This document shows positions 9,001 through 33,000 of a DNA stretch of 35,480 nucleotides, one piece after another (position 1 is the first letter of the stretch; each line of letters opens with the position of its first letter). The notes under the pieces were generated by a model. That model worked only from the letters and a program-made list of their open reading frames with translations, was not told the DNA's origin and did no database searches. A program made the translations under genes and the position numbers. This stretch comes from an uncultured Gammaproteobacteria bacterium (lineage in GTDB: Bacteria > Patescibacteriota > Microgenomatia > UBA10105 > UBA927): NCBI GenBank assembly GCA_964533995.1, contig CAZHOQ010000002.1, positions 1 through 35,480 of the forward strand, in the 5' to 3' direction.

Positions 9001-12000
9001 CATGGCGTCCCATCTGGCATACGGATATGTCCGGGACTTCACGGACCCGTACCCCGGGGTGCAGCGGATTCTGGGGGACTACGATCCGAACGGCGAGAAT
9101 GTCCGGGCAAGGGGAAACATGGTCAGGCCGGTGCGGGTGGCATTCTACGAGCCGGATCCCAACCCAGGACGCTTCGAAGGATTCCTGGACTTTATCGCAC
9201 GGATGCTCTATATAAACCGCCAGACTGGCAGGTGGCAGACGATCGAAATAAATCCGGTAGAAATACAGCCGTACCTTGTACAGTACCAGGAAGCAGTTGC
9301 CGCAAAGCGGCCGGTTCCCGAGCAGCAACGGATATTCGAGGAAGCGGTGCGGCAGCTGGAAACGGATCTTGCGGGCAGGATGAAAGAAGCGCCGGTCTAT
9401 ACCAAGCGCCCGCCGAACCTGGTGTTTGCCGCGGTCCGCCATCCGCTTACTATTTCTGAGATGCCTGAGTTGTTCGGGAAAGTGGGGGCCGCCACCGTAT
9501 TTGCCATGAGTCCCAGCCGCGAGCCGATGGTGTTTTTCGACCATTTGGTCCTTGAGGGAAATCCCGGGATGGATATCCGCGATACGATCATGCGTTCGAT
9601 GGGGGATATGGTGACCGACGCCCACCAGGCGCCACAGATAATCGAAAACAAGAAGAATCCCCGGATGACGATCAGGGCAGAAGATTTACCGAGGAATGTC
9701 TCGTTTGAAGATGCCATGACTGCGGTTGGTTACGCCATGCGTCGCCAAGGACACCCGGCTATTAAGACGATCGTCACCACGGGATCGCTTTCCGACCGTG
9801 TGACCGTTGCTGCCGTATCGGTTCTGCAACGCCTCCGCGCCCAGGCAATCCGGGTCTCCATCGAACAAGCCCATTCGGAATACGGCCTCCTTGACCGGGT
9901 GGCGCGGCAATATTACTGGCGGGTTGGCAAGCTTGCGGAAGCGATTATTACCGCCCTGACGGAGAATCTGCCCGGGCTGCGGAATTTTGCCCGGATTCTC
10001 AAAGGGCCGATGGTGACTTTCATCCGCAGGGATTACATCGGTGATCCCGGGATGCTGACGACCATCCTGTCCGACATCGCTTTCGATAACAACGTGCCGA
10101 CGATCGCCATATTGCAGGATAAGAATACCGGCCAGACACGGCTCATCATGCAGGGAGTTCAAAACGATGCGGTGCGGGAAGAAATGCTGCAGGATATTTT
10201 TGATGAGCTCCATGCGATCGAACAGAAGCAGGAGCGTCCATGGCCGAAACCCAAGAATTTCTTACAGCACCTGATTGACTGGATCCAGTGGCGGAGAAGG
10301 GTCGCCCGCGGGGAAACCGTCCGTCCGGCCTCCACGTCGTTTGAGTCCGCCGTTCCGCAAATCAAGGCGCCCGCGTACACGGTGAGCGCCATGGAACTCC
10401 AGCCGGTATACGATACGACATCGTTCCCCGGTGCGAATATCAGCTTTTCAGGGAGCACGATCACCGTATCGACGGACGTGATGACGTTTACCTTACGGAA
10501 AGACCCGAAGGGCAAACCGAACCAGCTCACGGAGGACGAGCTAAAACAGATTCGGTCCTACATCAACCATTACGAACAGCATAAGAGCGAATTTTCGGAG
10601 TCACCAAGCTACCAGACGTTGCCGAACCTGATTTCACTCCAGATGTTTTATGAATCAAATGGGCAGTTATACCTGATGCAGGTGCGGACTGATGAGGCTG
10701 ACACATTGGAGCGTACCCGCAAGGGAAGCTTGAACGCGGAAGAATTCCCGGCGAGTGTTTCCATCACCCCGGCGGGGGATATGAACTACCTGTTCTTTAC
10801 GCATGGCATCCGGGATCTGCTTAACGAGGCACAATACGAAGCGCTCCGCAGGGAGGTTGCCGAAGCACGGACCATTGAGGAAGCAAACACCCGTATCCGG
10901 TCGCTGTTCCAGTACTGGTTCCCGTACGAAACGGACCAATCCCGATTTCTGACGGTTATCAATGTGCCGACACTCGAGCAGGTGCGAAGGATCCAGAATG
11001 GCCAGGTATTCCTGCTTGCCGACCCCGAGCCTATCCTGTTTGTCAAATCTGTGACGGAACGGAAGAATCAGGCGCCGCTTGTGGAAACGCAGGTTGTTTC
11101 CCTCGATATCGATGCCACCCAGTCTTTGGTTGCCACCTGGGAGTACGGCGTGGATTTCTACAGGAACGGCCAGCGGATGACCGGATACAAAGCGGTTCTT
11201 GCCGTCGGGGACGTGGTATCCGTCGGGGCTGCCGGCTACCGGTATGAGGTGCAGGTGACGGATGAAAATGAGATCGTGCTTGCTAATCCCAAGGATCCCC
11301 ATGTGTTGCCGGGAAAGACCGCTCCGGCACAAACGCTTATTAACATTTCCCAGGGGGTTATCGTTGTGGACGGGACCGGCAGTCCGGAGTCGCTTGCCCT
11401 CATCGAGCGCATGTGGCCGTCTTCGAATGGCGTGCGTGGGGAAATCGTGGTTCCGTCGGGACAGGACGGGCTTGCCGTCGGGCGGAACTTCAATATCGTC
11501 CATCCGTCCGAATTGTTTGTGACGCCGGAACGGTATCGGTTCCAGGATACGTCGTTCCGGAACCAGTACATTAACCAGCTCGCTTTCGGTGTTCCGTATG
11601 AAATTCGCAATGTTCGGGGAGAAGCAATCGGACAGATTACCCGCATGTCGCCGTCACGGACTATCATCCGGCTGTTTACTGACTTAACTGATCCGCAGGA
11701 TGAAGCGCGGATCAGGAAAAGCAGCCGATGGTCGCTGCCGGACCAACTGCAGAATGATCTGGAAACGGCCAACCGGCGGGTTGCCGAGTCGCCCAACCAT
11801 GCCGCGGTGGCGACGACACGGCGGGTGGGATCCATGGTCTATGCAACCGGGGTGCTTCCGGTCGACCGGCGTATGGCGGGTCAGATCGGAGCAGACGGAA
11901 CGCCGGCTGTCTGGTCGATTAAACTGACGACTTCGGACCAGATTTATTACGACCGTTTGGATGCCGGCGAACGGCTGATTTGGGTGACGAGAATGATCGA

Positions 12001-15000
12001 GGAATCCGACGAAGTCGTCTATGCCCAGCACGGGTTCCAAGCGGACGGCAGGGTATACGCCAAGCCGATGGAAGCGATGCTTCTGCCGTATGACCGCAGC
12101 GGCCGGCGGCAGGTGAGCGTTGCTCCCGCGATCGCAGGCGCGAACGGAACCTTCGTTGCCAAAGACGGGGAATACACAATGGACGATGCCGTCGAACAAT
12201 CCTACCAATTCTATACGGCCCTTGATTCGATGTTCCATTTCCAGGGAAAGCGCGTGACCTTCATCGGCCAGTCGACCGGCGCGCGGCTCGTGCTTCTGCT
12301 TGCCGCCCGGCTTTCTTCCGCAAAGCAATTGCCTGCCAATATCCGCTTCGAGTTGGTCGCGCCGTATCTTCTTGATAAGAATCAGTTGACGATTTTCAAG
12401 GGTAATCCGCTTGCATTCCTATATGGGTACGTCAATGATGATTCCCGACCGTTATGGAGGAGACGAGTGCTTTTGTTCCTCGCCAAGTACTCGCTGGTAG
12501 ACCGGTGGATCGTCAATGACCGTTTAAGCAATCTCGGACGGGATACGGCGATCATCGATGACAGCATCATCCACCGTCAGAATCAGCAGGACATCCCGTA
12601 TACCACCCGGTGGACCAACCTGATATTGGGAGCTACCCCCTTGGACTGGGATGCATTACCCGAAGCGGTCCGGGTAGCCGAGATGCGTATCCACGTCCCT
12701 CAGAAAGAAAATATCGTCGATCACCGGTATACCCTGGAGTTCATGGACCGGCACGGACTATCATCGCGGCGCGTGAAAGTAAGCTACGAAAAGGGACATT
12801 ATCCGCCGTTGACCTCATGGGCGCAGGTAGGAAGGTATTTGAATTTTGGCGAACAGCCGGCGGCAACGCCCGTTGAGGAGGAATTCAATCTGTTTGAGTC
12901 GACGACTTCATGGGTCGGGAATTTGCGCGTCGTGGATCCCGAGGCAGCTCGACGGACCCAGTCAATTGTTGATCGCGTGAAAGATGCCCTCGCACGGATC
13001 CGTCCTTCGGATGACAATCCCTGCGGTGGGGGAGCCGGCATCATCCGCAAGGTATTTGCGCAGGATTCCGTCTTTTGTCTCTCACTCGGCGCAGGGGACT
13101 GGGTAGAACAGAAAGAGTCCCGCGCCGCCCAATCGGTTTTGAAACAATTGCCGCCGAGAGGGTACTACCGGCTATATAGGACGGATGATGACTTGCGCAA
13201 TTTTCCGTTGGTGCTAGCTGATCGGAATGCCGAGAAATCATTCGGCGGAACGACACGGATGACCGGTATCCCGGCGGGTTGGTATATCGCCGTATACGAT
13301 GAATCGGGTGCGTTTTCCGGCATCATCGATACGGCGGCCGTCGAACTGCGTTTACAACAAACAACGAAATCAGCGTTAGAATCTCCTGCCGTAACCATCG
13401 TAAGCGCGGGACTCGCAGGCGAGCGGAATAGGGGCGCCAAAATACAGGACAGGTTTGATTTGCCCTTCGGATGGAGCCGAACCGTTGCCGGAATGAGCGT
13501 ATCGTACCAGCTGAAAAACGGCGCCATTGTCACCGTCAACGGCATGGAGGACCGGGCTTCCGCAGAGTTGCTTACGGAACTGGAAACACGGGCGTACGCG
13601 CTCGCCAGGCGGATTTCGGAATTCGATCCCGCTGGGTACTCATTCCTGGACAGAGCCAATGCGTTCCGGGCGTTTGCCGACCCGTTCATTGAGGAACTAC
13701 GGAACCGTCCCAATGCACCACGGTCCACGGTATCCGTCGTGTTGCCGTACCGCGACCGAACCGGGGAACTGCGGATGCTTTCCTACCAGATCGGCGAACA
13801 GACGGTCGCATCAGTTACCCAGAAGGAAGACACGGCGGGTGCGGTTAAACTTGATCCCTTCCATGTGCCGCAGACATTTACCGGAGATCAGGCGGATGCA
13901 GTCATTGCTTCGGTACAACTGCGCAGTTCGGAACGCGCAGTCCGCGAAGCCATCGCGACCCTTATTGTGGATTCCGACCTGGTATTCCAGTCCGAAGAGC
14001 AGGCACGCGTATATTATGCATGGAGTCAGTTGCCTGCAGCCGAGCGGGCGACGTATCAGCGTATGGAAGGACGGGACGGGAAGGCATTGGTGGTGAATGT
14101 TGCCGATCCCCAGGCACAGCCCAGTATTACCGACAAGCCCGTTTACAGAAAAAGCAGGTTCATCATCGGATCGCCGGGATATACGGCAGCCGTCAATACT
14201 CCGGAGCGGGAGGGGATAGTAGCAAACATCCTCCAGTCATCCCGGAGTCCGGTTGAAGCCAGAAAGCGCATTTTGGAACAGCTCTATACATGGGGCGCCA
14301 CGAATGCCCAAAACGGGAGCGATGTGCTTTTCCAGATCGTATTTGATAACGAGGATCCGGCATTTGCTCCGCTAGCTCTTGAGGGACGCGCAGTCGTTGT
14401 CGCTTCACCGGTCGTCAGCGATGACGATCCCGTCATAAAAAGCGTCCGGACGGCGGTCGGCACGGTTGAGGTCGTCGTCGAACAGCGTCAGTCGGGTATT
14501 TCCGTACGGAAATTAACCAGCGGAAAAGAGTTATTCGTAAATGGTGTTTTGGTGGACAATGACGGTGTTTCTATATCGTTAGGGGATCAGATCAGCAGTG
14601 ACATTCAGGGGGTGACCTACGAAATCGACATCGATCCCAGAACCGGCAACATGCTGTGGCGCGATACGCGGTATTTCTTCGAGCCTGCTCCCGGGTTGGT
14701 TGGGGATGATGAGTCTAAAGTGCTTCCGATTTTGATGACGGCGATGAGAAATGATGACCAAGGATCGGTGATGGCACCCGGAAAAAGCAGTATCCTTGCG
14801 GATCTCGTGGCCAATTACATTGAGCTTGCCGCGCCAACAGCGCGGAAGATGTCGGTCGCTTCGGACATGAGGAGCTCCCGGCAGGTCGACAAGAAAAACA
14901 TCATTGCCGAATTTTTGAATATGCCGGGAATTATCGATAACGCATGGTATACGTTACGGTTCCATGACGGATTTGAGGAGTTCGAGATCGGCAGAATAAA

Positions 15001-18000
15001 GCGGTTGCCAAATGGAGACGTTCAGGTTAGGATTCCGCCGACTGCGGAGGGGATAGAGGCCAAAGCTAATCCGCCGCTTGGAAAACGGATTATGGAGATG
15101 CTTGAACGGGGACCGTTTAGCCAGTCAAGCGGGATCGATGCGACACCGGCATGGTTGAAAAGCGTTTTGAATAGGATCGAAAACTCCATCCGTCTGTTTA
15201 GAATGTGGCGCGACCCGGTAGGGTATGGCAGGAGTCTTGCTGACTCCATGCGCGTTACCCTGCCTGCCGATCTTCTGAATAATCCCGATGCGACCATCGC
15301 CTTACGCAACCAGATGCGTCAGGACCTTGCCCAGGCATGGAACTGGATGTCGTTTGCCAGAAGCCGCGGATGGCTGACGACCGCACAGGAAGACGCGATT
15401 TATGATTACCTTTTCGGACAAATGTCCGAGCGGTACGGTGCGGACATGCGCACCAGGTATCCGGATATTTACGGAAGCCTCACGCTTACCCGGACGATGA
15501 CGGACGCGATGGAAGACGTATTCCGGTATCTTGCGGGCGAACGGACAAGAGCATACGGCGAAGGCAGGAATGAGCAGCAGCTGCCTGCACTCCTTACCGC
15601 CTGGCAGGCGTCGCGCCGCCGGCTGCTTACGCGCGGCATTCCCGTGCAGCCGTTGCCCCCGCAGTCCCGGACGGAAACCCTGCCGCATCCCTTTGGAGGG
15701 GACAGGGAAATAACCCTGACCTGGACTTCAAATTCCGTGCGTATCCAGACCGGGGCGTTTATCCGGGACGTTCCGCGGGGAGTGGATGAACAGCGTATTC
15801 CGCTCGAAACGGGACTGATTGCCGTCGTACTCGGCAACGGCGATGTTAGGGTCGAGGTTACGGCATATCCGCATATGGTACAAACGCCGGACGGAACGGT
15901 TCTGTTTTATACCGACATACAGGGCAACCTGTATGACCCGCAGGGAGGCGGTATCCGCAGGTCCGTTGCGGTAACCCCGGTCCGCAGCGGCGGCAACATC
16001 GCGTTCCAGTATGCCGTTACCCGGACAGACGACGGGTACGCGGTAACCCGCCCCCGGACGGTGCGGGTATCCGAAGGCATGACGGTCTCCCTTGCCGACG
16101 GCACAACGACCGTCATTGCGGAAGATGACTTCGTCCATATCAACCGCGGCATGAGAAGCGACATACTGGTTTATCCCGTGACACCCGTTGGTATCGAATA
16201 TCCGGCGCCTGACGAGAGCGGAAACGTGCGGCTCGATATCATCCGCGGAGAGACTGAACTGTCCGGCACGGTACCGGCTACTCCGGCAACGGAGACAATC
16301 GTCGTGCCGGAGGGCGTTACCGCAACGGGTAACGAAACGCTTGCCGTACAGGCAATCACCAGGCTCTCGCCGGAAACCATCGAGCAGGCGGCAGAGCCGT
16401 TTATTACGGTCCGCGACCAGCACGTGACACTATCGAGCGTCCGTCTCATCGGCAATACGCTTATCGGCGACGGCCGCATCGAGTACACCACCCGGGAAAA
16501 GATAGCACAATACGGCGCGCGTGCCATGCCGGTCCGGATGATGATCAATCTCACGCCGGAAGACGCGTATAGAATTTTCCGGAATCCGGACGGCGCGTAT
16601 GCGGAACTTCTTGCCCGGTACCGGCAGTCGACGGAGTATGTGGTTGCCGTACACGGCTATTTCGAGTCCGGCAAACAGTTCGAGTCCGCTGCAGACCAGG
16701 TTCTTACCGCATGGGGAACCAATGGAACGAGGCAGGTGATGATTGCCGTCACGCATTCCGGCGCTGAGGATACCTATGCAGACGCACCGGGATATACCGC
16801 GGAACGTCTCGTGGACCAGGTCGAAGATGCCGTTGAGTACTTTGGTACGCAATACAGGATTGCGGAACGCAATGATGCCCGGGTTACCTATATGGGTCAT
16901 TCGCTTGGCGGCGCGGTCGGCCTCCGGATTATCGGCCGGCACGGAAGGGAACAGGGGGGCATTTGGGGGAAGATCAAGTATCTTTTAGTCGCCCCGTACA
17001 CCGGGGACCGGCGGCAACTTACTCTCCTTAATGAATACCGCGTGATCCCCTCAAATCCGAATACGGGGATCCTGCGGTTACTCAATCATCCGGCATTTTT
17101 ACGCGTCCCATGGCTTCGCTCATACTTTATGTGGTGGTCGAAAACGTTTGGGATCGAGAATGCCTTATTCGATACACTGATGAGTGTCGAGGAGGTCCGT
17201 GACCCAGCGGTTGCCGTATCCAAGCGCATTGCCAGCACATCCCTGCATAACGCCCGGGTAGCAATCCGGGAAACCAACACGCTCGATACGATTCAGCCGA
17301 TAGAGGACGAGTCGATCCTCCGTGAGCTTGCCGGTCAGGACAGGATTGCCATCACCAATCCGGAAACGGATGATACGCTCGATTCCGCTGTCACCGATGC
17401 ATTGGTTGACCGAACGGGAGTGCGGCAGGTGACATACCATAAGAGCCATAACCCCAAACGCCTGGACTGGGCAGGGGAAGTACAGCCCGTCGTCCAACAT
17501 CTGTTCGGCAGGATTACGTTGCCCGCAAATCCCGCGCCACGGTATGTCAATCCCCGAGAGCCGAATTCCCATGACCTGTGGCAAATACTTCGCGACAGTA
17601 TCGTGAATTCCGTCCGGGACCGGTGGGACCGTTTCCGCAGGCAAGGGCGGTATGAGCAGCGAGCGGAGCTTACCAATGAACCGCGGATAACGAGGCCGTA
17701 TGCGCTTGAGCCGTTTAACCTGCCGCAGGAGCAGCTCGGACATATGAGTCTAAGCACGCGGGGTGATTATAAATTCTTCTTTTATACGATCGAGCAGAAC
17801 GGGGAACAGTTCATCGCATTCGAGATGCCGTACGAAGCGAAGTTCTCCGTGGAAAAGCAATATTTCCGGATTAATGGAGCCCCGTACACGCGGGGACTGG
17901 TGCGTTTGCGGCTTGGGGACCGGATCGAATCGTCATTCGGTAACGGCATCGTGAGTGTCGTCCGTGATCCGTCCCAACCGGGCGGGTACGCCCTCGGTAT

Positions 18001-21000
18001 CAGGAACGGGACGGGGATATTCGGCGGACGCGGATCGTTTGGCGTCGGGCTGGGAACAAGTGACGCGAATGGCAATTGGTTTTCGGATGTCGGGAATATC
18101 GCCGTACTCCCCGTCAACGACGGCACCGTACTCGCTGAGAGCCTTACGCAGTGGACCGACCGGTTAGACGCGGATTTTGATCCCGACCTCCTGCTGGTTG
18201 AGGGTGCCGAAGAGCCGTTCTATCTTGAGAGCGTCAGCGCCAACCCGTCATCACCCATGTATATACGCGCACTGCTCCGGGACGGGATCCGTAATCTGCT
18301 TGTCGACATCGACAACCAGCCGGTCGGTTATGTTACGAGGATCGGCGATGTCGTCATGGTTGAACTCCTGAAAGAAAAGGAAAACCAGGGAAATACGACC
18401 CGCCGTTTTGATCTCGTGATGGGCGAACCGATGCGGCTCGTGTCGGTCCGCGATGCTTCGGGCCAACAACAGACTGCGCCATGGTTCCGCTTGTTCTCGC
18501 GCATATTCGACCGAACCAACTCTGCTGAAATCAGTGGGAATGTGCCGGCGATTAAACCGTCTGCCGACACCCCGGTCCGGCAGCAGCGTTTCGACCGGCA
18601 GCATCCGGACATTCTGGCGCAATATTACCGGCGGAATCAGTTCCTGGATGAAGCGAAGCTCGTGCATACTGTCGTCGTACCCGTTGCGGCAGAACTTAAT
18701 AACGCCAATTTCCTTCGCATGTTGGCGTCGCTCAATACGTTGGATCCGAAAACCGACCCCGCAACATTCGAGATACTCGTAGTAGTCAACAACGAAGACT
18801 CCGAGGCGGGAGGACAGGCATATTTCATAGAAAATCAGCGTACCGTAAGAATCCTCCAAGCATACGGGGCCGCGCTCCTGGACAGCCAACGGATTTCTCC
18901 GGATGAGGCGGTTGCACGGTTGGCCCTTGCGTTAGCGCCATATAATCTGACTCCCGGGCAAGTTTCGCTGCTTTCTGATCTGCTTAGGAAAAAAATCCGT
19001 ATCTATGGGATAGACGCAAGTTCCGTCGGACAATCCATCACGCGAAACGAAACGGAATTCTCACCGGGAATCGCGAAAAATATCGGTACGCATATCGCAT
19101 ATGAACGCCTTGGACATTCCGCATCAAACGACACGCTGATAGATTACAAGGATGCGGATATCGCATTCCCGTCGGATTATTTTCTAACGGTCGGCCGACT
19201 GCTTCAAAGGAAGCCGGGAGCGGTGTATTTCGGGATACAAGTCGTCCCTGGCATCCTTCCTAATTTGACGAACGCCGTCCAGAATCCCAAGCAACGTCTG
19301 GCGATTGTTGCATCGTATGCGTCGGAAGCGCTCGGAGGATTTAAGGGGGCGACGAAATATTTCGATTTTTCCAATGGGGGCAGGATTCAATTCGGACGAC
19401 GGGGTTCCTACCAGGAGGGGCCACAGCTTGCGATGAGTCCGGAGGTTGCCCGCGCCCTCGGCGGATATCCGATATCCGGACGGTTCGGTGAAGATTTTAC
19501 GGCGGCGGCATGGGCGCGAGATGCCGCAACGATTGTCGAACAGTATCCTGGTGACCTCCCCGTACTTACCCAGGTGCCCGGAAAATACGACTCTACGGAT
19601 ATGTATGCCGAAAGACATCCAACGGCATCCGCAAACAAGGATCATAACCTGATTTCTGCTATTGCGCGGACATACCAGTCCTATTCCCAAAATACGGATT
19701 TTCAGCGTGCCCTTGAACGATATTGGCAGCAGGATGCTGAACGAGCATTGCATAACAGGCAAATTATTGAAGCGATAGCCCGGGTTGTCTGGATGGGCCA
19801 ACCGATCCAGACTCTCAGCGCGGAAATCCAGGAGGAAATTGCCAGGAATTCGTATCTCGTGGATTTTGTTCGCGATGTCCGTACCGTTCATTCGCCGAAT
19901 AGTCCGGAAGAATTCATGCGGATTATTGCGAAGGAATATCCGATTTTGTTCGGCACGATTCCGCAGGAGCCGGATTACGAAGAGTTGACTGGGGTATTGC
20001 GTGATGACACTTCATCCCGACTGATTAATCCCCGCGATTTCGTCCATGTCATCCGCGCGGCGTATGCGGCCGAAGCCGCAGCAAATGGCAGCAATGCCGT
20101 TATTCAGGCTTCGTCTCAAACCGCCGTCGATGGTCAGCCAGAGGACGTCGGTGAAGAAGTTGCGAAGAACTGGTACGGTAAGTTCGAAAATATCGCCTGT
20201 GGATTAGGGGCCGGGATAGTGAAGCCCGTTTATGCTCAAGGCCCGGGCGGGAGTCAGTCGGCAAGTGGTGTCTGTCAGGTCGCCAGGGCAGCCGGGACGT
20301 TTATTTGGAAGAAACCGTTGCGAGCGATTGAATTTTTCGTGCTGGATAACGTGCTTCGGCCAATCCTGAGCAGGCAGGCTCCGGCGAATAAACTGCAGAC
20401 ACTCGTAGTTGCCTACGGGGTCATCGGTGTGACACTGGGTTTGGTTTCCGTCGGATTACTCCTAAGTAGCTGGGTTGCACCTGTCGCCGGGGTTTTTGGA
20501 TTAGCTTTGACAATGATCGGGATACTTGGTTTTTGGGACATCATGGGTGTGAAAAAGTCGGCACTTTCCTATCTGTATCCCAATGCCATTCAGGTTGCCG
20601 GTAACGGGCATTTCCAGGATCGGGCAAATTGGATTCGTTATTACCAAAAACGGCTCGAGTCCGACCCGAGTTTAGCGGGGTACGTGCAGGATGCCACCAC
20701 TACCACTGCTATTTATGCTGCGTTGGAACGGTACGAGCAGGATCGGTTACGAAAAGAAATCGATGCATTTGAGGATACGAATCCGGTTGAATTCAAAGAT
20801 ATCCAGGCGCAGGCAGCACGGATTGCACCGGTGATTGGCCGATGGCGAACGTTATCATTTGCCGAACGTAATCGGATGATCGGCGAATCTATGAGCGCTG
20901 ATGATGCTCGGACGCTGGATTTCCTTGATCTCTATGGTCAGTTCCCAAATCATAGCATCCAGTTGCACGGTGATGCCGTGCTGCAAGCAGGGTTGATTCG

Positions 21001-24000
21001 GTATCATAATAACCAGTTAAGGGCTCGGGAGCAGATACTTCATGCAAACCAGTCCTATGGGCGCGTCGTGGCACATGCCGGATTCCAAGCAGCCGGGGCA
21101 CCCAACGGAACGTCCCGTATGTATAAGGACGGAACCATTCTAGTCGTGTATTTTGATCCTGAAGAGGCCGCATATTATTACAAACATCCCGACCAAGGCG
21201 GACAGTTCGAGTTTACGAATCAACACATTCTGACAGTCAACATCGCTGTATCCGGTGGGGCAGGTGAGGTGCAGAGCGTTACGAATCATGAGTATGCCCA
21301 TTCACAAAGTAAGAATAAGAGTGTGGCCAAGCTGTTTACTTTTGTATTTCTTTTCAAGACATTCGATGAGGGGGCGACAAGCGTATGGCAACATCTTCTT
21401 GATATCGTGCAGGGTCGAACACCAGAGGAATCCAGTAAATATTTGTCGTATTCGGCGGAACGAACAGCTATGGATAGGTTGTTCCGGTGGCAGCGCCTCC
21501 TTGGTGTACCAGAGCAGGCTGCAGTCCGAAATATATTAGCCATTCAGCAGGATGAAAATATCGGCGCAGGATTCCCTGCCTTTTGGCAGCGGGGTGCGGC
21601 ATGGGGAATCGTGGCGCTGTCGCGTATTACTGATTTATTTAATATCTTTGGAGCGCCCCCATTCCATAAAACCGCGTTAGGGCAGGCCGTGGCACGGTAT
21701 GGCACTGAAATCCGTAATCAAGCCTTTGAACAAGGAACGGAAACTCCGACAATCGCACCGGGCGTACAACAATACTTTATTACCGATCAGCCGGGGGATA
21801 TACTCGAATCCGGCGCAAAAGCAATTACCGACCGTGCGGAAGATCTCTTGTGTGGGGGGAATTCGGGATTCGTGAGAAAAGCATATGCGCAGAGTCCTGG
21901 CGGTAGCGGGTCGGCGAGCGGCGTCTGCCAGGTCGCCAGGGCAGCCGGGACGTTTATTTGGAAGAAACCCATCCGGCAGATTGCGGAATGGACAATCCAG
22001 CGTCCGCAGGCCAGGCCAACATTGTCAACAGACCCATCGATCTTGCTTCAGAACCTTCCTGAACGGATACAGGCCGTATTGCGCGAGGCGGATGCGGCGG
22101 CCGCACGGAAGCCAAAGACGAAGCTGGAAAAAGAGATTACGGTAAGCCAGCTTAACGACGCATCGAAGCGGTACAGGAATCAGCGGGAGCTCGTCAATAA
22201 TTATGCGATCTTCATATCACTGTACCCGGAAATCATAAAAAGCACGGTGTTCACCGGTACCCAGGGGACGGCCGACCTTGAGGTGCGGCTACAGGATGCA
22301 TATAACGCGCACGGCATGTTCATCATGGCCGGGACGCTTACCCGGTATCTGGCGATCAAGGATGCCGCGGAGGCATGGCTCGCTACTCATGGAACCGCCA
22401 TGCCGGCCGATGAGCTCCAGAAGGAAATCGCCAAACAGTTTTCCGCGGATATCAACTATGAAGAGATTGCCGAGGAGTATATCGCGCGCATGCCGGGTGA
22501 GGCCGGGCGGAACAGGAAACTGGTTGCAAACGTCAGGGACTATCTCCGGCGCAAAATCAATTCGCTTCCCAAGCAGGGGAGTCTTACTGAGACGGGGACT
22601 CTGGATATCGAAGGGTTAGAGATTTCCGAAGCGGAACTTCTTCAGGCCGTCGTCGTCCGCGCGAATGGCAGCAGGCTTGGCGGAAACAGGACAATTGATC
22701 AGATCGACGACCACGAGCTGTATCTTATTGCCGCAAGTATTATCCTCAGCAGATACGAGGTTGAGGCGACCTTCGGTTCCTATGCGATATATAAACGGCT
22801 TCTTCTGGAGTCGGATGCACATTTTGACAGTAAGGTAGAGGAGCTTACCGGTATTAAGGTTCCCTTCGGGGAAGGGCTCGTGACCTTACCGTACACGGTG
22901 CTTGACGACGCACTGCAATACATAAAACCGGAGGGTTCAAGAACTGATGCCGCTGTCTTTGACAAAGTAACCCGCGGTACGTTTATTAGGACCGACATGT
23001 TTGCGCCCATCGGGTGGCTTCTCCATATCCGTGCCCACGAGCGGATCCACCAGAAGCAGACCCAAAAAACCGGCGGCGTCTCGGCGCAGGACGGGTCCTA
23101 TATCGAGGCATTCACCGATATGCTGGCAAGCGCCGTGTACCCGCATGAGTCCAGCTATTCGTCGGCGGTTAACAGGATTGCCCGTGCGCACCAGCTTCTG
23201 TTAGCCGCGGCTGGTAATCCTGAAGTACGGGTCAAAGAGTTGTGGAAGAGTATGGCGCTGACGGCATTTACCGGGAACCATTACGGGTATGACGAATCGA
23301 CCGGGGAAAAGATTCCCTACTACGGTACGCTCATGGAGGAGGAATTCGGTATCGGCGTATTCATACAGTGGATGAGTGAGTCGAGCTTCATTTTCGATAA
23401 CGGAAGGAACACCGACGCATGGTTTTATTATCCGCAGTATTTTTCCGAAAACGACCGGCTCGCCTATGATGCGCAAAGCGGCCTCTATCAAGTGGCAGCT
23501 ATTCTCCTTAACCGAAGCGCGCTGAAACCGAAGGAAGTGCGCCGGGCAAATCTTCCGTTCACTCCGGCATGGTTTACGGCCATAGGGTCCGAGACGATGG
23601 GGAATCAGTATGCTAGGAGATTCCAGCGCCTTGCCGAACTGATGCACGTATATGGAAGATACCGGACTGAACCTTCCTACGCACCCAACGAGAGTATCCG
23701 GCAGCGGGCGTTGCTGTCGCTCAAAATACTTTTCATTCATGTGTTCGTGAGCGATTACCGGTGGCTTGATAGTGACGAGTCCGTAGATGCCTATCTGCAG
23801 CGGACATATCAGCAGCGGTATCTGGACTCCGTAGTTGTGCCCCAGGGAACGGTGCCGGCAGTTGGTGCCCGCGTATTCGTGACGTACACGGATGATCAGG
23901 GTCAGCCGCATGAAAACGAGGCAGCCGTACTGGCACGCCGTTTTGAGGAGGGTGTGCCCGTTCCCGTGTGGGTCGTAATTTCCGAATCAGGGTACGAGGA

Positions 24001-27000
24001 TATCGGGCTCGTGCCTGCCGATAATCTGAGTCCGCCGGCACAGCAGTCATCCCCGGGCATCTTCCCGTTTATTAACAATCCGATTCAGGGAGTTATCCGT
24101 GCCATCTTCCCCCAAAGCGCACCGGAAAGTCCTGATCGGAAATCTGGTGCCGATACAAATACCGAGCAGCCGAAGGTTGTGAATTCCAATGAATCAACAA
24201 GGGTCACTACACAGCTTGAGCCGATCCGGGAGTTTCTGATTGCCCATCCCCAAATCAGGCAGATGGGACTGGCGGGCCAATTAGATGCGCTGATTCTTGA
24301 AGGACTTGCTACATTGACGTCTCCGGATGATCAGTACCGGTTTATACGGGAGGCAAATACGCTGTTACAGCCGCGTCTTAGCGATTATCTTGATCAGATT
24401 TACCTGCGGGACATGAAAGTTGACCTACGGAAAGAAACCGAACGACTGCGCTATCTGGTTATGGAGGAACGGTTTTTGGCTTTGGGGTTTGACTTTCATG
24501 CCGCATCATCCCTGTTTATTTACCTGCGGACGCCGGGGACGAGCGGACGGGATCTGGTGAGCGTTGTTCTGGAGGATGATGCAGAGACCGGGATTCCGCA
24601 ATTATACGTATCCGATTATCGGGGTACGACGCGCAAGTTAACGCTATTTACCGAGTATCTGGCATCGATGAAAGTAGGGGATATGCTGCAAGAAAGTTCC
24701 GGTATAGGCGGAGGCAGCATGTTCGCATACCAGAAGCAAACGGACGGTTCATTTGCAAAAGCCCGGTTGGTTGCCGCCCAGGGTTATGACACATTTACGG
24801 CGGAAGTGGTCCGCTCCGTATCGCTGTCAGCAAGCAAGTTCTGGCAAGCACTCGATGCTTCGGTACAGGCTAGGGATGCTGCTACGCTTATTGCGGCGTT
24901 GAAGACGGATCCGCAGATTGCCGAACTGTTAACACGGCAATATGAAGGCAATTCCGTCGAGGAGCGATTGCGAAAAGCTTTTCAGTCACACACGTCCGAT
25001 CCGACTCAACATTTGATCGTTACTCCTCGGGATGTGGCATTATTGTTGGTTTTTGCGGCATTTCCGCCATCGGAACGGGAGTATGTGACCGCTGTTGCCG
25101 TATCCCTTGTCAGTAATGGTGAGGTTCCGGATGGCGTAGGCCGTTTGGCACTGCTTGTCGCGTCAGGTGACGTATTCCGGTACTTCACATCCGATGATGT
25201 GGCTTCTACGGATCTGGTAAGAAAAATTGTTGATGTTGCCGCAGGATTCGGACAGAGCGAACTGGACGTCAGGGACGTGCTTACGGATGTATATCAGGGT
25301 CGATATGGCTTGCCGTTTGATACCAAAAAAGTACTTGCGCTGAATAAGGCAATCCACGCGGTTAGGGCACACACAACGAATACGGAACAGATAAGTTCCG
25401 CATTCCCGTCGTTATTCCAGCGGGTCGCCATGGTCCGGGACAATATCATACACACACCGTATCCTGCGCATCGGATTGACCCCAAAACCGGATATCCCGT
25501 ATTACCCGACGGCACTGCGGCAAGCGATCATGCCGTTATTTCCTCCTCGGATCGTGCATCGGAAGAAGATATCGAGAAGGCGAGAAAAGTGTTGGAGAAG
25601 ATTCGTCCGGACGGGACATTCATCCTGGGCCACAGTCCGACACCAGGAGACGCGTCCCAGTCCCAGCTTCTTGGCCAGGAGAAGGCGGTGCAGCTGCTCG
25701 TTAATTTTATCGTTTTCGGAATATGGCCGCAGTACGAAACACCGGAGCTTTCCCGGTATGAATCCGCTCCGTGGATCGGCACATTTAACTTGGTGGATCC
25801 GCACAACGTATCTGCCGGCCGGTATTTCGAAAACGGAGCAGCCGTCATCATCGATCCGCGTGCGGAGCATCCGTACAATGCAATAGATGAGCAGGAAACA
25901 TCAGTATATGTTCCGCCTCAATATCTTCTCTATATCGTGCCCACATGGGCGCATGGGGATCAATTGCTCCGCGAGGCCATTAAATTACGACGCCTGAACC
26001 CCGATGAGGCAAAAGATCTGGATAGCAGGATATTCACCATCCAGGATGTTATTGACGGAACATTCGAACGCTACATAAGTAGGAACGAACCGGCGAGCGA
26101 TGTAGAGCAGTTTGCCCAGGATCGCCTAGACGAGGCGGAAAACAACTGTAATGGCAACCAGACTTCGATACCAACGTTTACCGTTCATGCCGCAGGCGGC
26201 AAGGTCTGCAGTATCGCGGACCGGCTGCTTGCCAACCTGAAAGGGGCGGGGATGAACGGGGATATGCCCAACAGAACCGTCTGGAACCGTGTACGGAATT
26301 TCCTTGGATTCGATGTGAACGGGCGTCCGTCAACGCGCCGCCAGTATCCCTTGTGGATTCCCGCGTTCTTCAATTTCATCCAATACAAGGTAAATGGCGA
26401 ACCGTTCATGGTGTACCTTGACCGGGAATTTGCCAAATCTCCGGGAAAGGCGTGGCTTACCGCAAGCTGGCATCTTGCCAGGGCAGTTTTCGTATGGGCC
26501 GATACGACGCTGTTGTTCACACCGCGGAACGACATTCGCACCATGATGGTAACCATGCAAAATCCAATTGCGATGTTTGTCATGCCCATTCTGGAAGAAC
26601 TGGGGTACAGAAGTAACGCGACGCTGCAGAGAGTCCAAACCTTCCTGGGGCGTTTCGGAGTTCACTTAAGCGGATTCCAGATGCGCCGTCTTTCTGATGT
26701 CGTGTTTGTTTTGTACCATATACCCAATTACATCATCGCTCCGCAGCTTATCCCGTTCCAGCTCGTGTCGAAATTCTTCGGTGCGGCATTCATGCAGAAG
26801 CTCGCAAACGAACGGGGACTGGGCACGTCGATAGCATTCCATACGTTTTTTAACACGATGGTTGCCGCGATGGAGGCGTTAACCGTTTCCCCGAATGGGG
26901 CAGTCGCTGCCCAGTCACCTTCCTACGCCTGGGCGCCATTCGGCGTCATCACCGCGGTCCAGGTTGCGCTAGGCACGAAGGAGCTGATAGACGATTACCG

Positions 27001-30000
27001 GATTGACCGGACCCTGCGGGGTCTCAGAGCGGGAGAAGAGAGGACGCAAGCTCAAGTTTGGATACCGCGTCTTCTTGCAGTGCCAGCTACTAACGGATAC
27101 AAATATCTTTCCGGTCTCGAAATGTCCTATGAAGTGCACCGGAAGGGAAGCGGCAACGAAAGTGATGTGGTGTCTGCCGTTATTCAGGATATCGTAGATA
27201 ATGCACCCCGGAATTTATCTTCTGAGCTAATCCGGGACAGGATCGAAAACGGCTTGAAACATCTTTCGGACGTATATGGGGTTGCCCAAGATTCTTATCT
27301 TGAGGCGGTTGATGCTTGGGTAGAACAGTACCTAGAGAACGTAATTACCGCTGCACGGCAAACGCAGGAGACTTGGTGGGGGCGTATTTCCCGACTTATC
27401 AGTGATTTGTTTAGACGAGCAAGCAGTAGTCGATTCCCTCACGAAGCGGACGTCCAGGACCGCCTTGACGATGCGGAAAGCAACTGTAGCGGCAACCAGA
27501 CCTGGATACCCACGTTCACCGTTCATGCCGCCGGCGGCAAAGTCTGCAGCATCGTGGACCGGCTGCTTACTTCCCTGAAACATGATGTGGGAATGACCGG
27601 TGACATGCCGATCCGGACGATTATCGGGACGGGCGCATCTGTTCTAGGCGGGGGATCGGGCGATGCGGCGGACGGACCAATCGAACTGTACGGCACTGCG
27701 GTATCCCCCTTGTCCAGAAACGACCGCGAGCAATTATGGGCAAGCGGCAGGGATTTGCATTCGGACCGCGGCCGCGTATACGAAATTCCCGGCGGACGGG
27801 TGTACCAGGAAAAAGAGGTGTATTACCATTTCGCATCGAAGGATGCGCTTATCCGGCAGCTCCGGTTTCTTGTCCTCCTGACCCAGAAGGGATTCTTCCC
27901 TCCGGATACGACATGGTTCTATTACCGGATGGACAACGGGGAATATTCCATTGCGGCGAACATGCCGTATCTTCAGAAGACGGCAGGCATCCCCAGGCCG
28001 GACCGGCGAACCTCTTCCGAAGCGATCACCGGGCCCATGCAGCGCGTATTTTCTTCGTTCCGGATCGGAGTCAACCAAAGCGACCCGGACTACCAGGAAC
28101 AACTAGTCTGGGCGGCCATGATCGCGGCCGACGCGTTAAAGTACGACAACTGGGCAGACGATGGGAAACAGATCTACCTTATAGACATCGAAGGTGTTAC
28201 GAACCGCCCGCAGGCAGTCGATGCGGTACTGGATCATTTGGATCCGTCAGCAGAGACGGGAAATATTTGGAGTTGGTTGCGCGGATTGATTGATTTAATA
28301 CGTAATGGCGGTATCGGCGGCGGGCCGGCACCGGTTGGGGAAGGGGACGGGGAAGCGACGATACGCCTGCCGGTCACCACATCCGCCGAGCAGGTGCGAC
28401 TTAAAAGCGACGGGGCGGCGTGGCAAACGGCCAGGGAAATCCTGCTTGTTCCAATACTCCCTGTCAGATTATTCATATATTATTTCAATGGCATTGACGT
28501 GCCGACACTTGTTGGTCGGATGGACAATCTCCCCTCCGTGCTTGAATGGCTCCGGACGATTGAGGCACTCCCGATTCTTGATAAATACACCGCATCATTC
28601 GGGAAACGTCAGGCAATGGAAGAAATCTTCGATAACCTGTTAGCTAATCCGGACCGGGCGGCAATTATCCGGCATCTTCCAGATTTGCTTAACAGCGGGA
28701 AAGCACTCGGCATGTCCGAGGAGCAATTGACGGAACTTATGATCGTTACGACCGAAATGCCCGTATCGATCATGGTTAAGACTGCGGGGCTTCTGCCTAC
28801 GTTGAGGAAGTGGCATGGCGAGGATCCGTATGGCAGCTTCCTCGACAAATATAACCAAACCGGCGTCATATATGCGTTTCTCCACGTGCAGAATCCATTG
28901 CCGGTGCTGCCGTATATCGACGGATGGGTAGAGATTTTGGAAAAAGACGAGCGGCTGGACGGATTCCTGAAGACACAGGCGCTCGCGTCGCTTATCACCG
29001 CTCCCGACCCATCGCGCATACCGCCGGCGGATCTTCCTCAATATATCAATCAAGTCGTGGAGCTCCGGGGGATAGCCGAACTAACCGAAGAAGACCTCCA
29101 CTTCGAGAGTGATTACTTCGAATACGTATTCAGCAGGACGGATCCCAAGCGTACATACGAATCCGTCCGGTTTGTGTTCTATGATCCGGAGACGCTTGCC
29201 ATCATCAATACGGACCTAACCCGGCGGCAGGTTATCGGGCTTATGCGGTACGGGCTCGGCGGTTCACTTACGAGCAATCACACACTGTTCCGTCCCCTTG
29301 AGGAAATGCTGCTTGATGCAGGACTTCAGTATTCAGACATCTCACTGGTGATCGGCAGGAATCTGGATCGGTCTGCCGTACTTCCCGCGGTAGTCGCCGA
29401 CGAGCGGATTACCGGGCTCATCCGCGGACTGCGGTATCTGGGTTTTCCATCCAAGCTCAAGGGGGAAATCATCAGAAATGCCATATCCAAATTTTTGGGC
29501 GAATCTACGGAGGCGGAAAAAACAAGTATTGCAACCGAACAGAATATCGCAGCTCTGAACTCACTCTGGAAACTCCAAAACGATCCGGCGCTTATTACGG
29601 CAGGTCACTTTGACACGCTCACTGCTGAGTATGGAGAGACATTTGTCCGTGAGGGGCTGTATGCACTGGGGACGTATGTTGCCGAGGTATACGACGCCTA
29701 TACCCGCTGGATCAGGAATTATCCCGATCCTGCGAAACGGGATGAGGCGATCGGGGTGATCAAGCTTTTCAAGGAACTCGGTATCAGTATCGATAACAAT
29801 AGGATTTACGGATTTACGCATTTGCCGGAGGTCGTCGTGGTAGCGGTAGAGGCGATGCCGGACACGGATAGGGAAACGAAGACGAGGTTGCTTGTCGAAT
29901 TTTCCGCATACCGGGCGCGTGGTGATTCGCTCAAGGAAGAGGCGCTCCTAAAGATTATCCGTGAAGGCAGGTTTACGGAATTTGCGAGCGACTATCAAAA

Positions 30001-33000
30001 GCTCCGGATTCTTGAAGACCGGGATGTGATCGCGATGAAAGATGCGGCGACGCTCAATAGCCTCTATGCGAGACAACGGGAGCGCCTTCAGGAAGTCGTC
30101 GGAAGCATGTTGGAGACGCGTTATTCGGAAAAGTACGTCGCCGATCTTGTTGAGGGACTTGTAACCCTGTGTGCCGTCGTGTGTGCCAGTCAGGAAATGG
30201 TTGAATTTCCGGTGGGCAACGCGACCTTTGCTGTTCCATTGGCGTTCGGAGAAGAGCTTGCCGAACAAGTGACTGACCTTTCGGAGTTTGCCAAAAGGCT
30301 TTTTGTTTACATCATTGCCGATTCCGTCGTTAAGGAGAATCCGTACGCGATTGTTGACCTTGGAGTGCTCCAAATCGGTCAGACGGTCGATAAGGTTGGC
30401 AACAGAAGAAACGCGCTAGATTTAAATGAAACATATGCCGCGGTTCAGCGGAACATTGAGGCATCTACAGCCGTTTGGAAACAGGCTCAGGAGCTTCGGG
30501 ACGAAGAAGCGGGAAGGCCGGTATTCATCATCGCAAACGAACGGACCGCCCCGGCGGATGTGGCGGCGGAAGCGTTCTCGCCGGAAACGGCCAAAGCCCA
30601 GGGGATCGTGCAGGACGTGCCGTATGACGATATTTTCCCGTGGATGCTGGAGAATAAGGCGCTTATTGATCGGTTGTACGACCAGTACCAGAAAGGTCAG
30701 CCCCTTACCGGATCCATACCCGCGGATATCGTCCAGATGCTCGGGCTGAACTCCGGCGGCAGGATCATACCCATTTACCGCCTCAAAATCGCATCCTCAG
30801 ACGGGAATATCGGCAAGGATTCGGATGGATTTCCGGCAGTGCTGACGTTCATGAAACTTGCTTCGCTTCTAAACGGCAAGGTCCTGTTCGTTGACGAATC
30901 CACGAGAGTCGCACCCCGATCGATTGTTTCCGTATACGGTTCGCTTGACCGGCGCCAGAAGGAGCTCGGCGGCGTCCGGGTCCGGATGGTTGGGAAATTG
31001 CATAATGCCGTATGGGATACGGGCGCGAAATTTACTGATGCTAACCCTGGCCGCCCTCATATGGATGTCACCTTCCTTGATCCTTGGACCTATCAGGATA
31101 AATCCATTACGGACGACAGTTTCGGATTCGTACCGGAAGTGGAAGGAACCGGCTATGTGAAGATTGTCGTTCCGGCACAGCTTTCGCTTTCCGTACAGGT
31201 CGGCAAAACCATGCAGGATACCTGGAAGCGGATGATTGCCGGTCAGGTTGCACAGCGCATGGGCTGGGAGCAGGCGCCGGAACATGGCGCAGAAAACGCT
31301 GAGCAGGCCAAATTGACGAAAGCATTCGCCAGGCCGTATAAGGCCGTAAGCCTGGATTTTGATGGGACGTCCAACAACGAAACGATTCAGCGTGTAAGAA
31401 CGCTCCTTACCGAAGGCACAATGGTCATATTCAACACCGCCCGTTCGACCGTTGAACATCCGGAGTATAACGGAGGCATTGCGATCATATCCGACCAGCT
31501 GTCCGACTTGCCGCAGGAAGCGCTCGATTTATTGTGGTTCTCGACGGAGGACGGAGGCTACATCGCACCGTTTACGGCGCTCGAATCACCGATATTCACG
31601 GCACCTATGGAGCCTGCGGCAGAGGTGAAGATTCGCTCTTATATCCGGTCTTCCGTCCGTATCACCCGCGGCATATACGACGAACGCGTGTCGATTGTCT
31701 TGCGGTTTAATCATGGAAAGGAGACCGAGGCCGCATTAGCACAACTTACGAAATTCGTCACCCAAAATAATTTACCATTATTGGTAGTTTCCCGAAGCCG
31801 TCATGGTATTGCCATACGGTCCGATAAAGCCAGCAAGGCAAATATTTTTCCGCTTCTTGAGGAAGAAGGTGTTGCGGTGGACGATGTTCTAAAGGTAGGG
31901 GACAGTGCGGAAGGCAACGATAGGGATCAGCTTATCGGACGCGGTGCGTTCAATGTCGGCCCGAATCGGGGAGGGACCCAGGATACTATTTACTGGGGTG
32001 ACCGGGAGATCGGAACCAACGACATACTTGACCGCGCGGCGTTCGTCCCTGCCCGGGAAGGTACGGACAAGAGAACTCAGCCGGAAAGCAAGGATTCCGT
32101 GCTGGGTATCGATACGGATTGTTTTTCCGCAAATCCGTTTATACCGAAAGTATACGCTGCAGACGGATCCGGGCATACCTGCAGCCCGTTTTTCCGGGCT
32201 CCATGGAAGGTGGTATTCGAGAATGCCGATGAGGCATTCGATACGGAAAAGCGGGATAGGCTTATGAAGCGGGTAGGGGAAGAGGTTGGAGGGGTGTTCG
32301 GTACGATGGCAGACCGGTCTATCGGTCTTGCGAGAAAGTTTATAAAACTCGAATTACTGACAAGGCTCGGGTATGCCCTGTTTGGCAAGTACGGGGGCAA
32401 CTCACAGCTCCCGCCTCCGGATAAGTTCGTACTTGGCATGACCGGTGTCGGATGCTGGTTTAATAACTGCCAGGAGGGATGCACCACTGGCTTGCAATGC
32501 AGCGAAACGACCGGCTGTTGTACGGGCATCAAAAATTATAAGGACACCATATGCTCCTCGGACGGCAATGCGGAGATGGACCGGCATATGACGGATGATT
32601 TGTTCCAGCCGGATGAGGTCAGGCTCTGCGATGAGCGTGGTTGTAAGGACGGCAAATGCCAAGGATACAAAACAGATACGGACGGCCTGCCCGCATGCTC
32701 GTCCTTGCCGGTGGCATACAACATGTCGGACTTTTCGGAATGGAGTTATTTACCGGTAACCGGTTGTGTCAATGATGACGGGACGCTGGGGTATAAAATG
32801 GGTGTTCCGACGGACGAATTTAAGGATTACTCCTGCTCACTTGACGGCACCAAAGTGCTTAATACGGAAGGTGAGGTAGTGCATACATGCGGAAGCGGCG
32901 TGACCTGCGCGAAATTTGCTGATTCGGTAGACTGTTTTCTCCCTTCCTCGATCCAGGCGCTCGAAATGTGCAGCCCGACGGTGCGACTTGCAAGCGGGTT

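Follow-up and report, generated by a model that had tools for sequence, protein, structure and literature searches.

Whether giant bacterial proteins act as single chains or get cut into pieces is an open question, and in a survey of giant genes the missing information on cleavage points blocked further analysis (10.1101/2023.11.21.568195). The same question is raised by a stretch of 35,480 nucleotides (nt), contig CAZHOQ010000002.1 of assembly GCA_964533995.1, the whole of which is called the window below. Positions 8..34009 of its forward strand are occupied by one giant open reading frame (ORF), whose translation of 11,333 amino acids (aa) contains six short loops, each bounded by two cysteines. 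An original prediction, made from the sequence, took these loops for processing or nicking sites that divide the protein into enzyme-bearing blocks. As far as can be judged by sequence comparison, the loops are a real, conserved and portable junction element of a family of giant multi-enzyme proteins, and the element is previously undescribed. Since it provides a short conserved motif between modules, the question of cutting becomes directly testable for one family.

Loop copies and junction units

All six loop peptides of the original prediction are present letter for letter, at the same residues and nucleotides, and the lengths of the blocks between them (2392, 551, 1432, 446, 1545 and 629 residues) are arithmetically right. 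Loop 1, CGGGAGIIRKVFAQDSVFC, is found at aa 4339-4357 (13022..13078; this and all further features are on the forward strand unless stated otherwise), at the N-terminal start of a homology block called block B. It is followed by loop 2 at aa 6731-6756 (20198..20275), loop 3 at aa 7282-7307 (21851..21928), loop 4 at aa 8714-8734 (26147..26209), loop 5 at aa 9160-9180 (27485..27547) and loop 6 at aa 10705-10725 (32120..32182).

Loops 2 to 6 are held by longer junction units. Unit 2 (aa 6704-6799, 20117..20404) and unit 3 (aa 7255-7350, 21770..22057) are paralogs, loops 2 and 3 lying within a 97-aa internal repeat with 52% identity. Similarly, unit 4 (aa 8678-8758, 26039..26281) is a paralog of unit 5 (aa 9127-9205, 27386..27622). 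Here the internal repeat is 82 aa long with 61% identity, and the loop itself is identical in 19 of 21 positions. Unit 6 spans aa 10688-10764 (32069..32299). Because loops 2 and 3, as well as loops 4 and 5, lie in internal repeats, the six loops are not independent occurrences.

The codons of loops 2 and 3 and their surroundings have many synonymous differences, and there are several in loops 4 and 5, with the amino acids retained. Thus the resemblance is held by selection and does not come from a recent copy. In six pairs of copies the loop identity is 65, 90, 57, 71, 47 and 67%, and that of the adjoining 50 residues is mostly 20-50%; in loops 4 and 5, the identity is 90% inside the loop versus 36-43% in the flanks. 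Two loci, L001 and L002, match the window with 100% identity and therefore give no polymorphism data.

Loops 2 and 3 are each followed by 13 codons (QVARAAGTFIWKK) that do not differ in a single one of their 39 nt (20276-20314 and 21929-21967). The 15 codons directly preceding this stretch have nine synonymous differences between the two loops. The identical stretch may reflect local gene conversion or a constraint acting at the nucleotide level.

Relatives

When 1.84 billion representative proteins were searched at E <= 0.001 with a profile (A1) constructed from the six window units only, eight matches resulted, two of which are true relatives. The other six are spurious: three scan as HYR_4C repeat proteins, two more look like these by eye, and the last is a repeat protein of another kind. 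Each of them reached its score by adding up many weak matches.

The first relative, MBP6993646.1 (P0005 below), is a protein of 7,662 aa encoded on contig JAGOLU010000003.1 of a Candidatus Woesebacteria metagenome-assembled genome (MAG). It has three loops, at aa 2042-2063, 5974-5995 and 7313-7333, and the first of these is the ortholog of loop 1. The second relative, P0007, is an 818-aa ORF with two loops, found on a 34-kb contig (L004; Logan SRR22388250_63792). It lies directly behind an ORF of 9,017 aa in the same frame with one TGA between them (L004 nt 9818-10003), and the final 3,273 residues of this longer ORF contain one more loop, CGVGYLRIIPLVLAQDGETPSPDDC. P0007 has its own ATG preceded, five nucleotides upstream, by a Shine-Dalgarno-like sequence GAGG, and a loop unit is situated at its very N-terminus. 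The original prediction depended on the motif and its cysteine pair being kept in homologs, and both P0005 and the L004 ORF pair carry both.

In the window protein, the homologous counterpart of the stretch interrupted by the L004 TGA is an unbroken linker that joins block C to loop 4. The TGA could represent a gene split at a module border, a site of read-through, or an error.

Three blocks of the window protein are homologous to P0005. Block B (aa 4316-5067, 12953..15208) is 40% identical to aa 2019-2791 of P0005 (E = 4e-161). Block C (aa 8061-8701, 24188..26110) is the most conserved module, with 61% identity to aa 4109-4750 (E = 0). Finally, aa 1753-2217 are 33% identical to aa 3557-4038 (E = 1e-55). 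The blocks are ordered differently in the two proteins, and thus the family is a shuffled mosaic. Block C contains an invariant stretch of 26 residues, ESAPWIGTFNLVDPHNVSAGRYFENG.

No further relatives were found in genome, metagenome or viral collections. A genome scan with a 1,200-aa segment produced no match, and one with the block C alignment retrieved the Woesebacteria contig only. The scan of viral contigs was empty, as were two metagenome scans, one made with preset patterns and the other with a degenerate pattern written for WIGTFNLVDPHN, which is invariant. No match came from word-index protein searches either, for which aa 8601-9300, aa 8061-8759 and an alignment of 11 loops served as queries; these negatives are weak, as the same searches missed P0005, although the collection includes it and one of the queries matches it with 61% identity over 640 residues. 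The junction-loop family is very rare, with 12 loops at three loci.

GC content is 55% in the window, 43% in the related locus L003 and 49% in L004. Members of the family therefore come from rather dissimilar genomes, even though block C is 61% identical. The giant protein probably comes from the Candidate Phyla Radiation (CPR, Patescibacteria), the group of its nearest relative from Woesebacteria; the assignment is made from one MAG bin whose contig consists almost entirely of the giant gene.

One of the A1 matches, P0002 (692 aa), consists of nine tandem repeats of about 47 aa, which start with CDDNGAFVRKYIQ and end at a second cysteine. Over its first 13 residues the repeat is similar to the fixed half of loop 3 (CGGNSGFVRKAYAQ). 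Pfam gives nothing useful for this protein, and judging by the sequence the likeness may be convergent or that of a very distant relative.

Structure of the junction loop

The twelve loops (six from the window, three from P0005, two from P0007 and one more from L004) were compared using the conserved alanine as an anchor. The distance from the first cysteine to this alanine is 12 in ten loops, and 13 and 15 in the remaining two. The distance from the alanine to the second cysteine varies from 6 to 14, and this stretch is rich in glycine, serine, proline, threonine and alanine. The total length is 19-27 residues. The fixed part consists of the cysteine, four or five small or polar residues, two hydrophobic residues, two residues that are often basic or proline, the triplet [VAF]-[YFTL]-[AV] and one of [QASH]. 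The fixed length between the first cysteine and the alanine, followed by a variable tail rich in Gly, Ser and Pro, thus looks like a recognition segment followed by a flexible spacer. In the three complete sequences all 11 occurrences of an eight-residue degenerate form of the motif are inside a cysteine pair. The conserved hydrophobic residues of the fixed segment occupy positions i, i+1, i+4 and i+5. Basic residues at the two positions before [VA]-[YF]-A are present in nine of the twelve loops and are not conserved.

Not all details of the original description of the loop have held. The triplet V-H-A assigned to loops 4 and 5 is two residues out of register: in the common register these loops have F-T-V at offsets 10-12, where the other loops mostly have [VA]-[YF]-A. 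The ending G-x-x-C is present in some copies and not in the rest. An acidic segment precedes loops 2-6, with a net charge of -2 to -5 over 25 upstream residues, but the charge is +2 in loop 1, and +4 and +6 were observed in some homologous loops. The general upstream feature is instead a D/N-rich cap directly before the first cysteine.

The flanks on both sides of the loop look helical. This follows from inspection of the sequences and from a low-confidence model where helices end at both cysteines of loops 4 and 5. AlphaFold2 yielded a low-confidence helix-coil-helix only, both for the loop 6 unit with 11 aligned units (predicted local distance difference test, pLDDT, 48) and for the region from loop 4 through the CPBP-type protease module to loop 5 folded as a single sequence (pLDDT 37).

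No Pfam or NCBIfam model covers the junction unit, and the loop itself has no match in these collections, in line with the original prediction, which recognized no described family. Several known types of sites were considered and dropped. The residues before the cysteine are wrong for a lipobox. An intein, Hint or other autoprocessing at X-Cys would require a surrounding domain, which is missing. The glutamine of 3C-like Q/G sites is not conserved, and two ligands are too few for metal binding by the loop. Thioester or isopeptide sites and double-glycine leaders were likewise considered from the sequence and dropped.

Cysteine distribution

The giant protein contains 50 cysteines among 11,333 residues (0.44%). 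Between aa 64 and aa 10,704 there are only twelve, and every one of them is paired with another at a distance of 4-25 residues: ten belong to loops 1-5, and two form a CxxxC at 10055/10059. Random placement reproduced this pairing in 0 of 200,000 trials, and the analytic estimate of its probability is about 1e-10. The same is observed in the relatives: P0005 has 14 cysteines, and P0007 has eight, all of them paired.

Loop 6 is followed by a region with 30 cysteines (aa 10816-11127, 32453..33388), irregularly spaced and lacking a CxxC/His zinc pattern. By its sequence it looks like an extracellular disulfide-rich domain. Cysteine has been reported to be excluded from exported proteins of Gram-positive bacteria (PMC2823432). 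The strict pairing and the 30-cysteine C-terminal region of the giant protein would fit an oxidizing destination.

Two cysteine pairs of the window protein do not belong to the loop family. These are CAVVC at aa 10055-10059 (nt 30170-30184), situated within the hydrophobic segment YVADLVEGLVTLCAVVCAS, and CADASSC near the N-terminus, at aa 57-63 (nt 176-196).

The only unpaired cysteines seen in the family are two in the long L004 ORF (nt 17-9820), at local aa 1719 and 2086, counted from nt 2 of the locus. Their contexts, GLTCYLHTLTAAM...DHTVLF and EVQCVVFADLL...GHLFVVY, resemble the Cys...His arrangement of papain-type enzymes. Pfam does not support the papain-type reading of these two sites. 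If real, they might be further embedded proteases.

Position of the loops relative to modules

Block B begins 23 residues before loop 1, and it does so in the window protein and in P0005 alike. Block C, which has no match in Pfam, NCBIfam or the PDB, ends 13 aa before loop 4. The loop 6 unit and the unit of P0005 loop 5974 are 60% identical over 38 residues, whereas the modules on both sides differ: in P0005 the loop is preceded by a multi-transmembrane (TM) region, and a GNAT domain begins some 65 residues after it. Unit 6 alone matches two P0005 loops and one P0007 loop with unrelated flanks. The neighbors of units 2 and 3, and those of units 4 and 5, also differ on both sides. As the same unit recurs between unrelated flanking modules, it is an autonomous cassette at module borders.

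Enzyme modules

The best supported enzyme is situated between loops 4 and 5. It is the core of a CPBP/Rce1-like intramembrane glutamic protease (aa 8854-8951, 26567..26860), which scores 26.8 bits against PF02517 (cut-off 22.4) when block 4 is scanned alone, and 21 bits, below the cut-off, in a scan of 5000 aa. The motifs EExxxR, FxxxH and HxxxN/D are present as EELGYR (aa 8863), FVLYH and HTFFN (aa 8945). The hydrophobicity of the helices is only moderate.

A borderline Pfam match corresponds to alpha/beta-hydrolase 2 (aa 5545-5709, 16640..17134; GHSLG at aa 5630), for which DUF676 scores 20.3 bits at a threshold of 20.3. This region is paralogous to aa 3931-4242 (GQSTG at aa 4087), hydrolase 1, which is below the threshold.

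Three HExxH motifs could mark metalloprotease sites: at aa 7094 between loops 2 and 3 (21287..21301), at aa 7677 after loop 3 (23036..23050), and at aa 11208 after loop 6 and the cysteine-rich region (33629..33643). Given the composition, 0.14 such motifs are expected (P about 5e-4). The zincin label of the original prediction thus has this enrichment on its side but no family behind it: searches of 250-aa segments around the three sites found no metallopeptidase family in Pfam at E <= 10. The HAD label is weak. It is based on the motif DFDGT at aa 10450 (31355..31369), a possible HAD phosphatase, and on a weak NCBIfam match at aa 10569-10640 (E = 0.0018, nine blocks scanned).

Hence the enzyme assignments made earlier stand for CPBP and, at the borderline, for hydrolase 2, while GT2 and the kinase-like module are unsupported in the Pfam and NCBIfam scans. 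There is a weak hint of a GGDEF-like domain at aa 1311-1372. Sequence searches of the PDB with the whole giant protein gave nothing usable. The only strongly hydrophobic stretch of the protein is a TM hairpin at aa 6799-6843 (20402..20536), 43 aa after loop 2.

Possible functions of the junction loop

The loop may be a disulfide-tethered nicking or processing site cut by a protease embedded in the giant protein; we estimate the probability of this reading at slightly less than 0.4. The two loop cysteines would form a disulfide at an oxidizing, extracytoplasmic place. The disulfide would staple the flanking segments together and display the fixed segment as an exposed recognition site, and a protease would nick the loop at or beside the conserved alanine. 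The best candidates for this protease would be the CPBP-type module of the same protein, which has loops 4 and 5 on either side, or else an HExxH module. In this way the giant precursor would be converted to enzyme-bearing fragments that remain tethered by disulfides until reduction, for example in a target cell. The logic would be that of AB-toxin activation loops, repeated along a multi-effector chain similar to MARTX.

Enzyme modules indeed occur after loops: CPBP follows loop 4, and GNAT follows P0005 loop 5974 at about 65 aa. Moreover, the disulfide-rich C-terminus occurs together with enzymes using cytoplasmic cofactors (GNAT in P0005, possibly HAD in the window protein), and this suggests extracellular transit and then action inside a cell.

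A number of considerations weigh against a nicking loop. Both the cleavage and the disulfides are predictions. The statistics of conservation are thin, as there are three loci and 12 loops, several of them paralogous. The placement at domain boundaries claimed in the original prediction is borne out where loops lie at the borders of homology blocks, but the loop is not present at every module junction. The end of block C is the same in P0005 as in the window protein, but what follows it there is a low-complexity linker without a loop. The module after the L004 loop is homologous to aa 1169-1704 and 2600-2848 of the window protein, and no loop precedes these regions. The first 4,338 residues of the giant protein are loop-free altogether. 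Furthermore, a separately made module should need no cutting site, and P0007, whose translation can apparently start on its own, still begins with the unit; by its sequence P0007 would agree no less with a role in docking or targeting. The four or five conserved hydrophobic residues suggest docking to a groove and not a free loop. The giant protein shows neither a signal peptide nor an export route, the extracellular oxidation of cysteines by anaerobic CPR-type organisms is not a given, and both structure predictions (pLDDT 48 and 37) are uninformative.

A serious alternative, though also less likely than not, is a docking or structural element that is never cut. The unit would then be a disulfide-stapled or Cys-capped helix-loop-helix connector whose hydrophobic plug packs into a groove of a module or a partner. 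The plug would either fix the arrangement of modules or attach separately made modules to the giant chain. Binding surfaces typically show hydrophobic residues at i, i+1, i+4 and i+5, as the fixed segment does, the motif never parts from the cysteine pair, and at loop 1 the unit and the block downstream of it form one continuous stretch of homology between the two proteins. P0007, too, begins with the unit although its translation can apparently start independently. On the other hand, the unit stands beside unrelated modules on both sides and is therefore not part of one domain fold. The second half of the loop is length-variable and rich in glycine and serine, as in exposed flexible loops. 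AlphaFold produced no confident packed structure, a weak point given the shallow alignments.

A targeting or translocation tag is quite unlikely. Such a tag, one per module, would be read by an export or sorting machine or by a receptor of the target cell and would mark the start of a cargo. Indeed, units precede enzyme modules, and the unit is kept at the N-terminus of the separate ORF P0007. The TM hairpin lies near loop 2 and the multi-TM region near P0005 loop 5974. No classical signal peptide is present anywhere, so that another export signal must exist. However, known secretion signals do not have this form, signals repeated internally within one chain would be unprecedented, and the little gene context that is available shows no transporter gene.

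Another improbable possibility is a redox latch that is never cut, with disulfides keeping the modules inactive or compact until reduction in the target cytoplasm activates the enzymes. Strict cysteine pairs in a protein otherwise almost free of cysteine and the presence of enzymes needing cytoplasmic cofactors would agree with it, but the fixed-length motif and its [VA]-[YF]-A core would have no explanation.

Cleavage by the Sec-associated type I signal peptidase, to which the -3/-1 argument of the original prediction would lead if read at face value, is very improbable. The -3/-1 rule is satisfied by [VA]-[YF]-A followed by Q, A or S in nine of the twelve loops, and in ten if V-L-A-Q of the L004 loop is counted. 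However, loops 4 and 5, with F-T-V in register, break the rule. In all window loops the 25 upstream residues are polar or charged, with no h-region and no preceding TM helix, and the chain lacks an N-terminal signal peptide by which it could reach the Sec machinery.

Finally, the notion that the loops are functionless remnants of internal duplication, combined with chance resemblance, is close to refuted: loops 2/3 and 4/5 are indeed paralogous pairs, but the cysteine pairing has a chance of about 1e-10, the loops are conserved in other organisms where they were found with a profile derived from the window only, and conservation is higher within the loop than around it, with synonymous changes present there.

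Should the loops be cutting sites, natural borders for splitting giant proteins in structure prediction would be at hand, and CPR bacteria might deliver bundles of enzymes to their hosts. If they are docking staples, they represent a new way to organize very long multi-domain chains. The full version of the nicking reading seems unlikely as it stands: CPR-type bacteria would produce giant effector polyproteins with a portable cut-but-tethered cassette, whose 12-residue segment is recognized by their own CPBP or HExxH protease. If it is true, one gene gives rise to a set of enzymes joined only by disulfides and freed on reduction in the host cell. This would be the first defined processing signal of any bacterial giant protein, and a multi-site form of the AB-toxin activation loop.

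Gene neighborhood

The frame of the giant ORF has no in-frame stop codon between the window start and the ORF, a distance of only 7 nt, and thus the N-terminus of the protein could lie upstream. The ORF as read has no N-terminal signal peptide. The GC content is 52-57% all along the window.

Two genes on the reverse strand follow the giant gene. The first encodes a PIG-L/LmbE-type deacetylase (34029..34814), and the second, the C-terminal fragment of a YfhO-like membrane protein (34824..35420). In L004 too, the giant gene has a homologous YfhO-like gene downstream of it (13620-15638), encoded on the other strand, and the two loci therefore correspond. Between the giant and the YfhO-like genes, the window has the deacetylase gene and L004 has a 325-aa HTH/PRTase gene. 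This arrangement hints at a connection with glycosylation of the cell envelope. A phage or plasmid context was not seen, the neighbors in the window being PIG-L and YfhO-like genes and the scan of viral contigs being empty.

Comparison with known systems

The activation loops of AB toxins, such as diphtheria toxin, clostridial neurotoxins, Pseudomonas exotoxin A and Shiga toxin A, are nicked, and the fragments stay tethered by a disulfide until reduction. The similarity to the giant-protein loops is in the architecture: one cysteine pair subtends about 12-29 residues between functional parts, compared to 19-27 residues here. However, AB toxins have one loop per toxin with basic sites of the furin or trypsin type, whereas the giant protein has up to six with a hydrophobic [VA]-[YF]-A core, and no basic site of that type was found as a conserved core in the 12 loops. 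There is no sequence or family relation between the two, and cleavage in the giant protein is only proposed.

MARTX toxins and large clostridial glucosylating toxins share with the giant protein a very long chain, several enzyme modules and a protease of their own (in the giant protein, a candidate one). MARTX toxins are cleaved at several disordered interdomain sites (PMC3153235). Unlike the sites considered here, these are plain Leu-X bonds in disordered linkers without a cysteine pair, and they are cut by a C80 cysteine protease activated by inositol hexakisphosphate (InsP6). MARTX toxins also differ in having RTX repeats and type I secretion. Pfam scans of the whole giant protein found no match to the C80 protease or to RTX-type repeats.

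A different parallel is provided by MroQ, a CPBP/Abi protease of family M79, which cuts AgrD, a peptide composed of a helix, a linker and a Cys-closed macrocycle; short peptides mimicking the AgrD linker were cleaved by a soluble signal peptidase I as well (10.1101/2021.12.29.473670). A CPBP protease thus acts on a substrate whose parts are an amphipathic helix, a linker and a ring closed by cysteine, and the CPBP module of the window protein is situated between two loops. However, AgrD is a peptide of about 46 aa with a thiolactone ring and is cut just outside the ring, whereas here the motif is inside the ring and the protein is giant.

Mosaic multi-enzyme chains with embedded peptidases have been described as polyvalent proteins of phages and conjugative elements (Iyer et al. 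2017, PMC5512222) and as giant proteins of Omnitrophota (10.1101/2023.11.21.568195). For both groups, autoproteolytic release of domains was proposed, and the cleavage points were not established. Neither of these two papers describes a Cys-bounded junction motif, and Pfam scans of the giant protein found no domains in common with either group, among them those of polyvalent proteins (MPTase, ArdC-N, DarB-type and others).

Since testable defining features of AB toxins (the basic protease site) and of MARTX toxins (the C80 protease and RTX-type repeats) are absent, the junction element belongs to neither family. By analogy, it would work most like an activation loop of an AB toxin multiplied along a MARTX-like chain.

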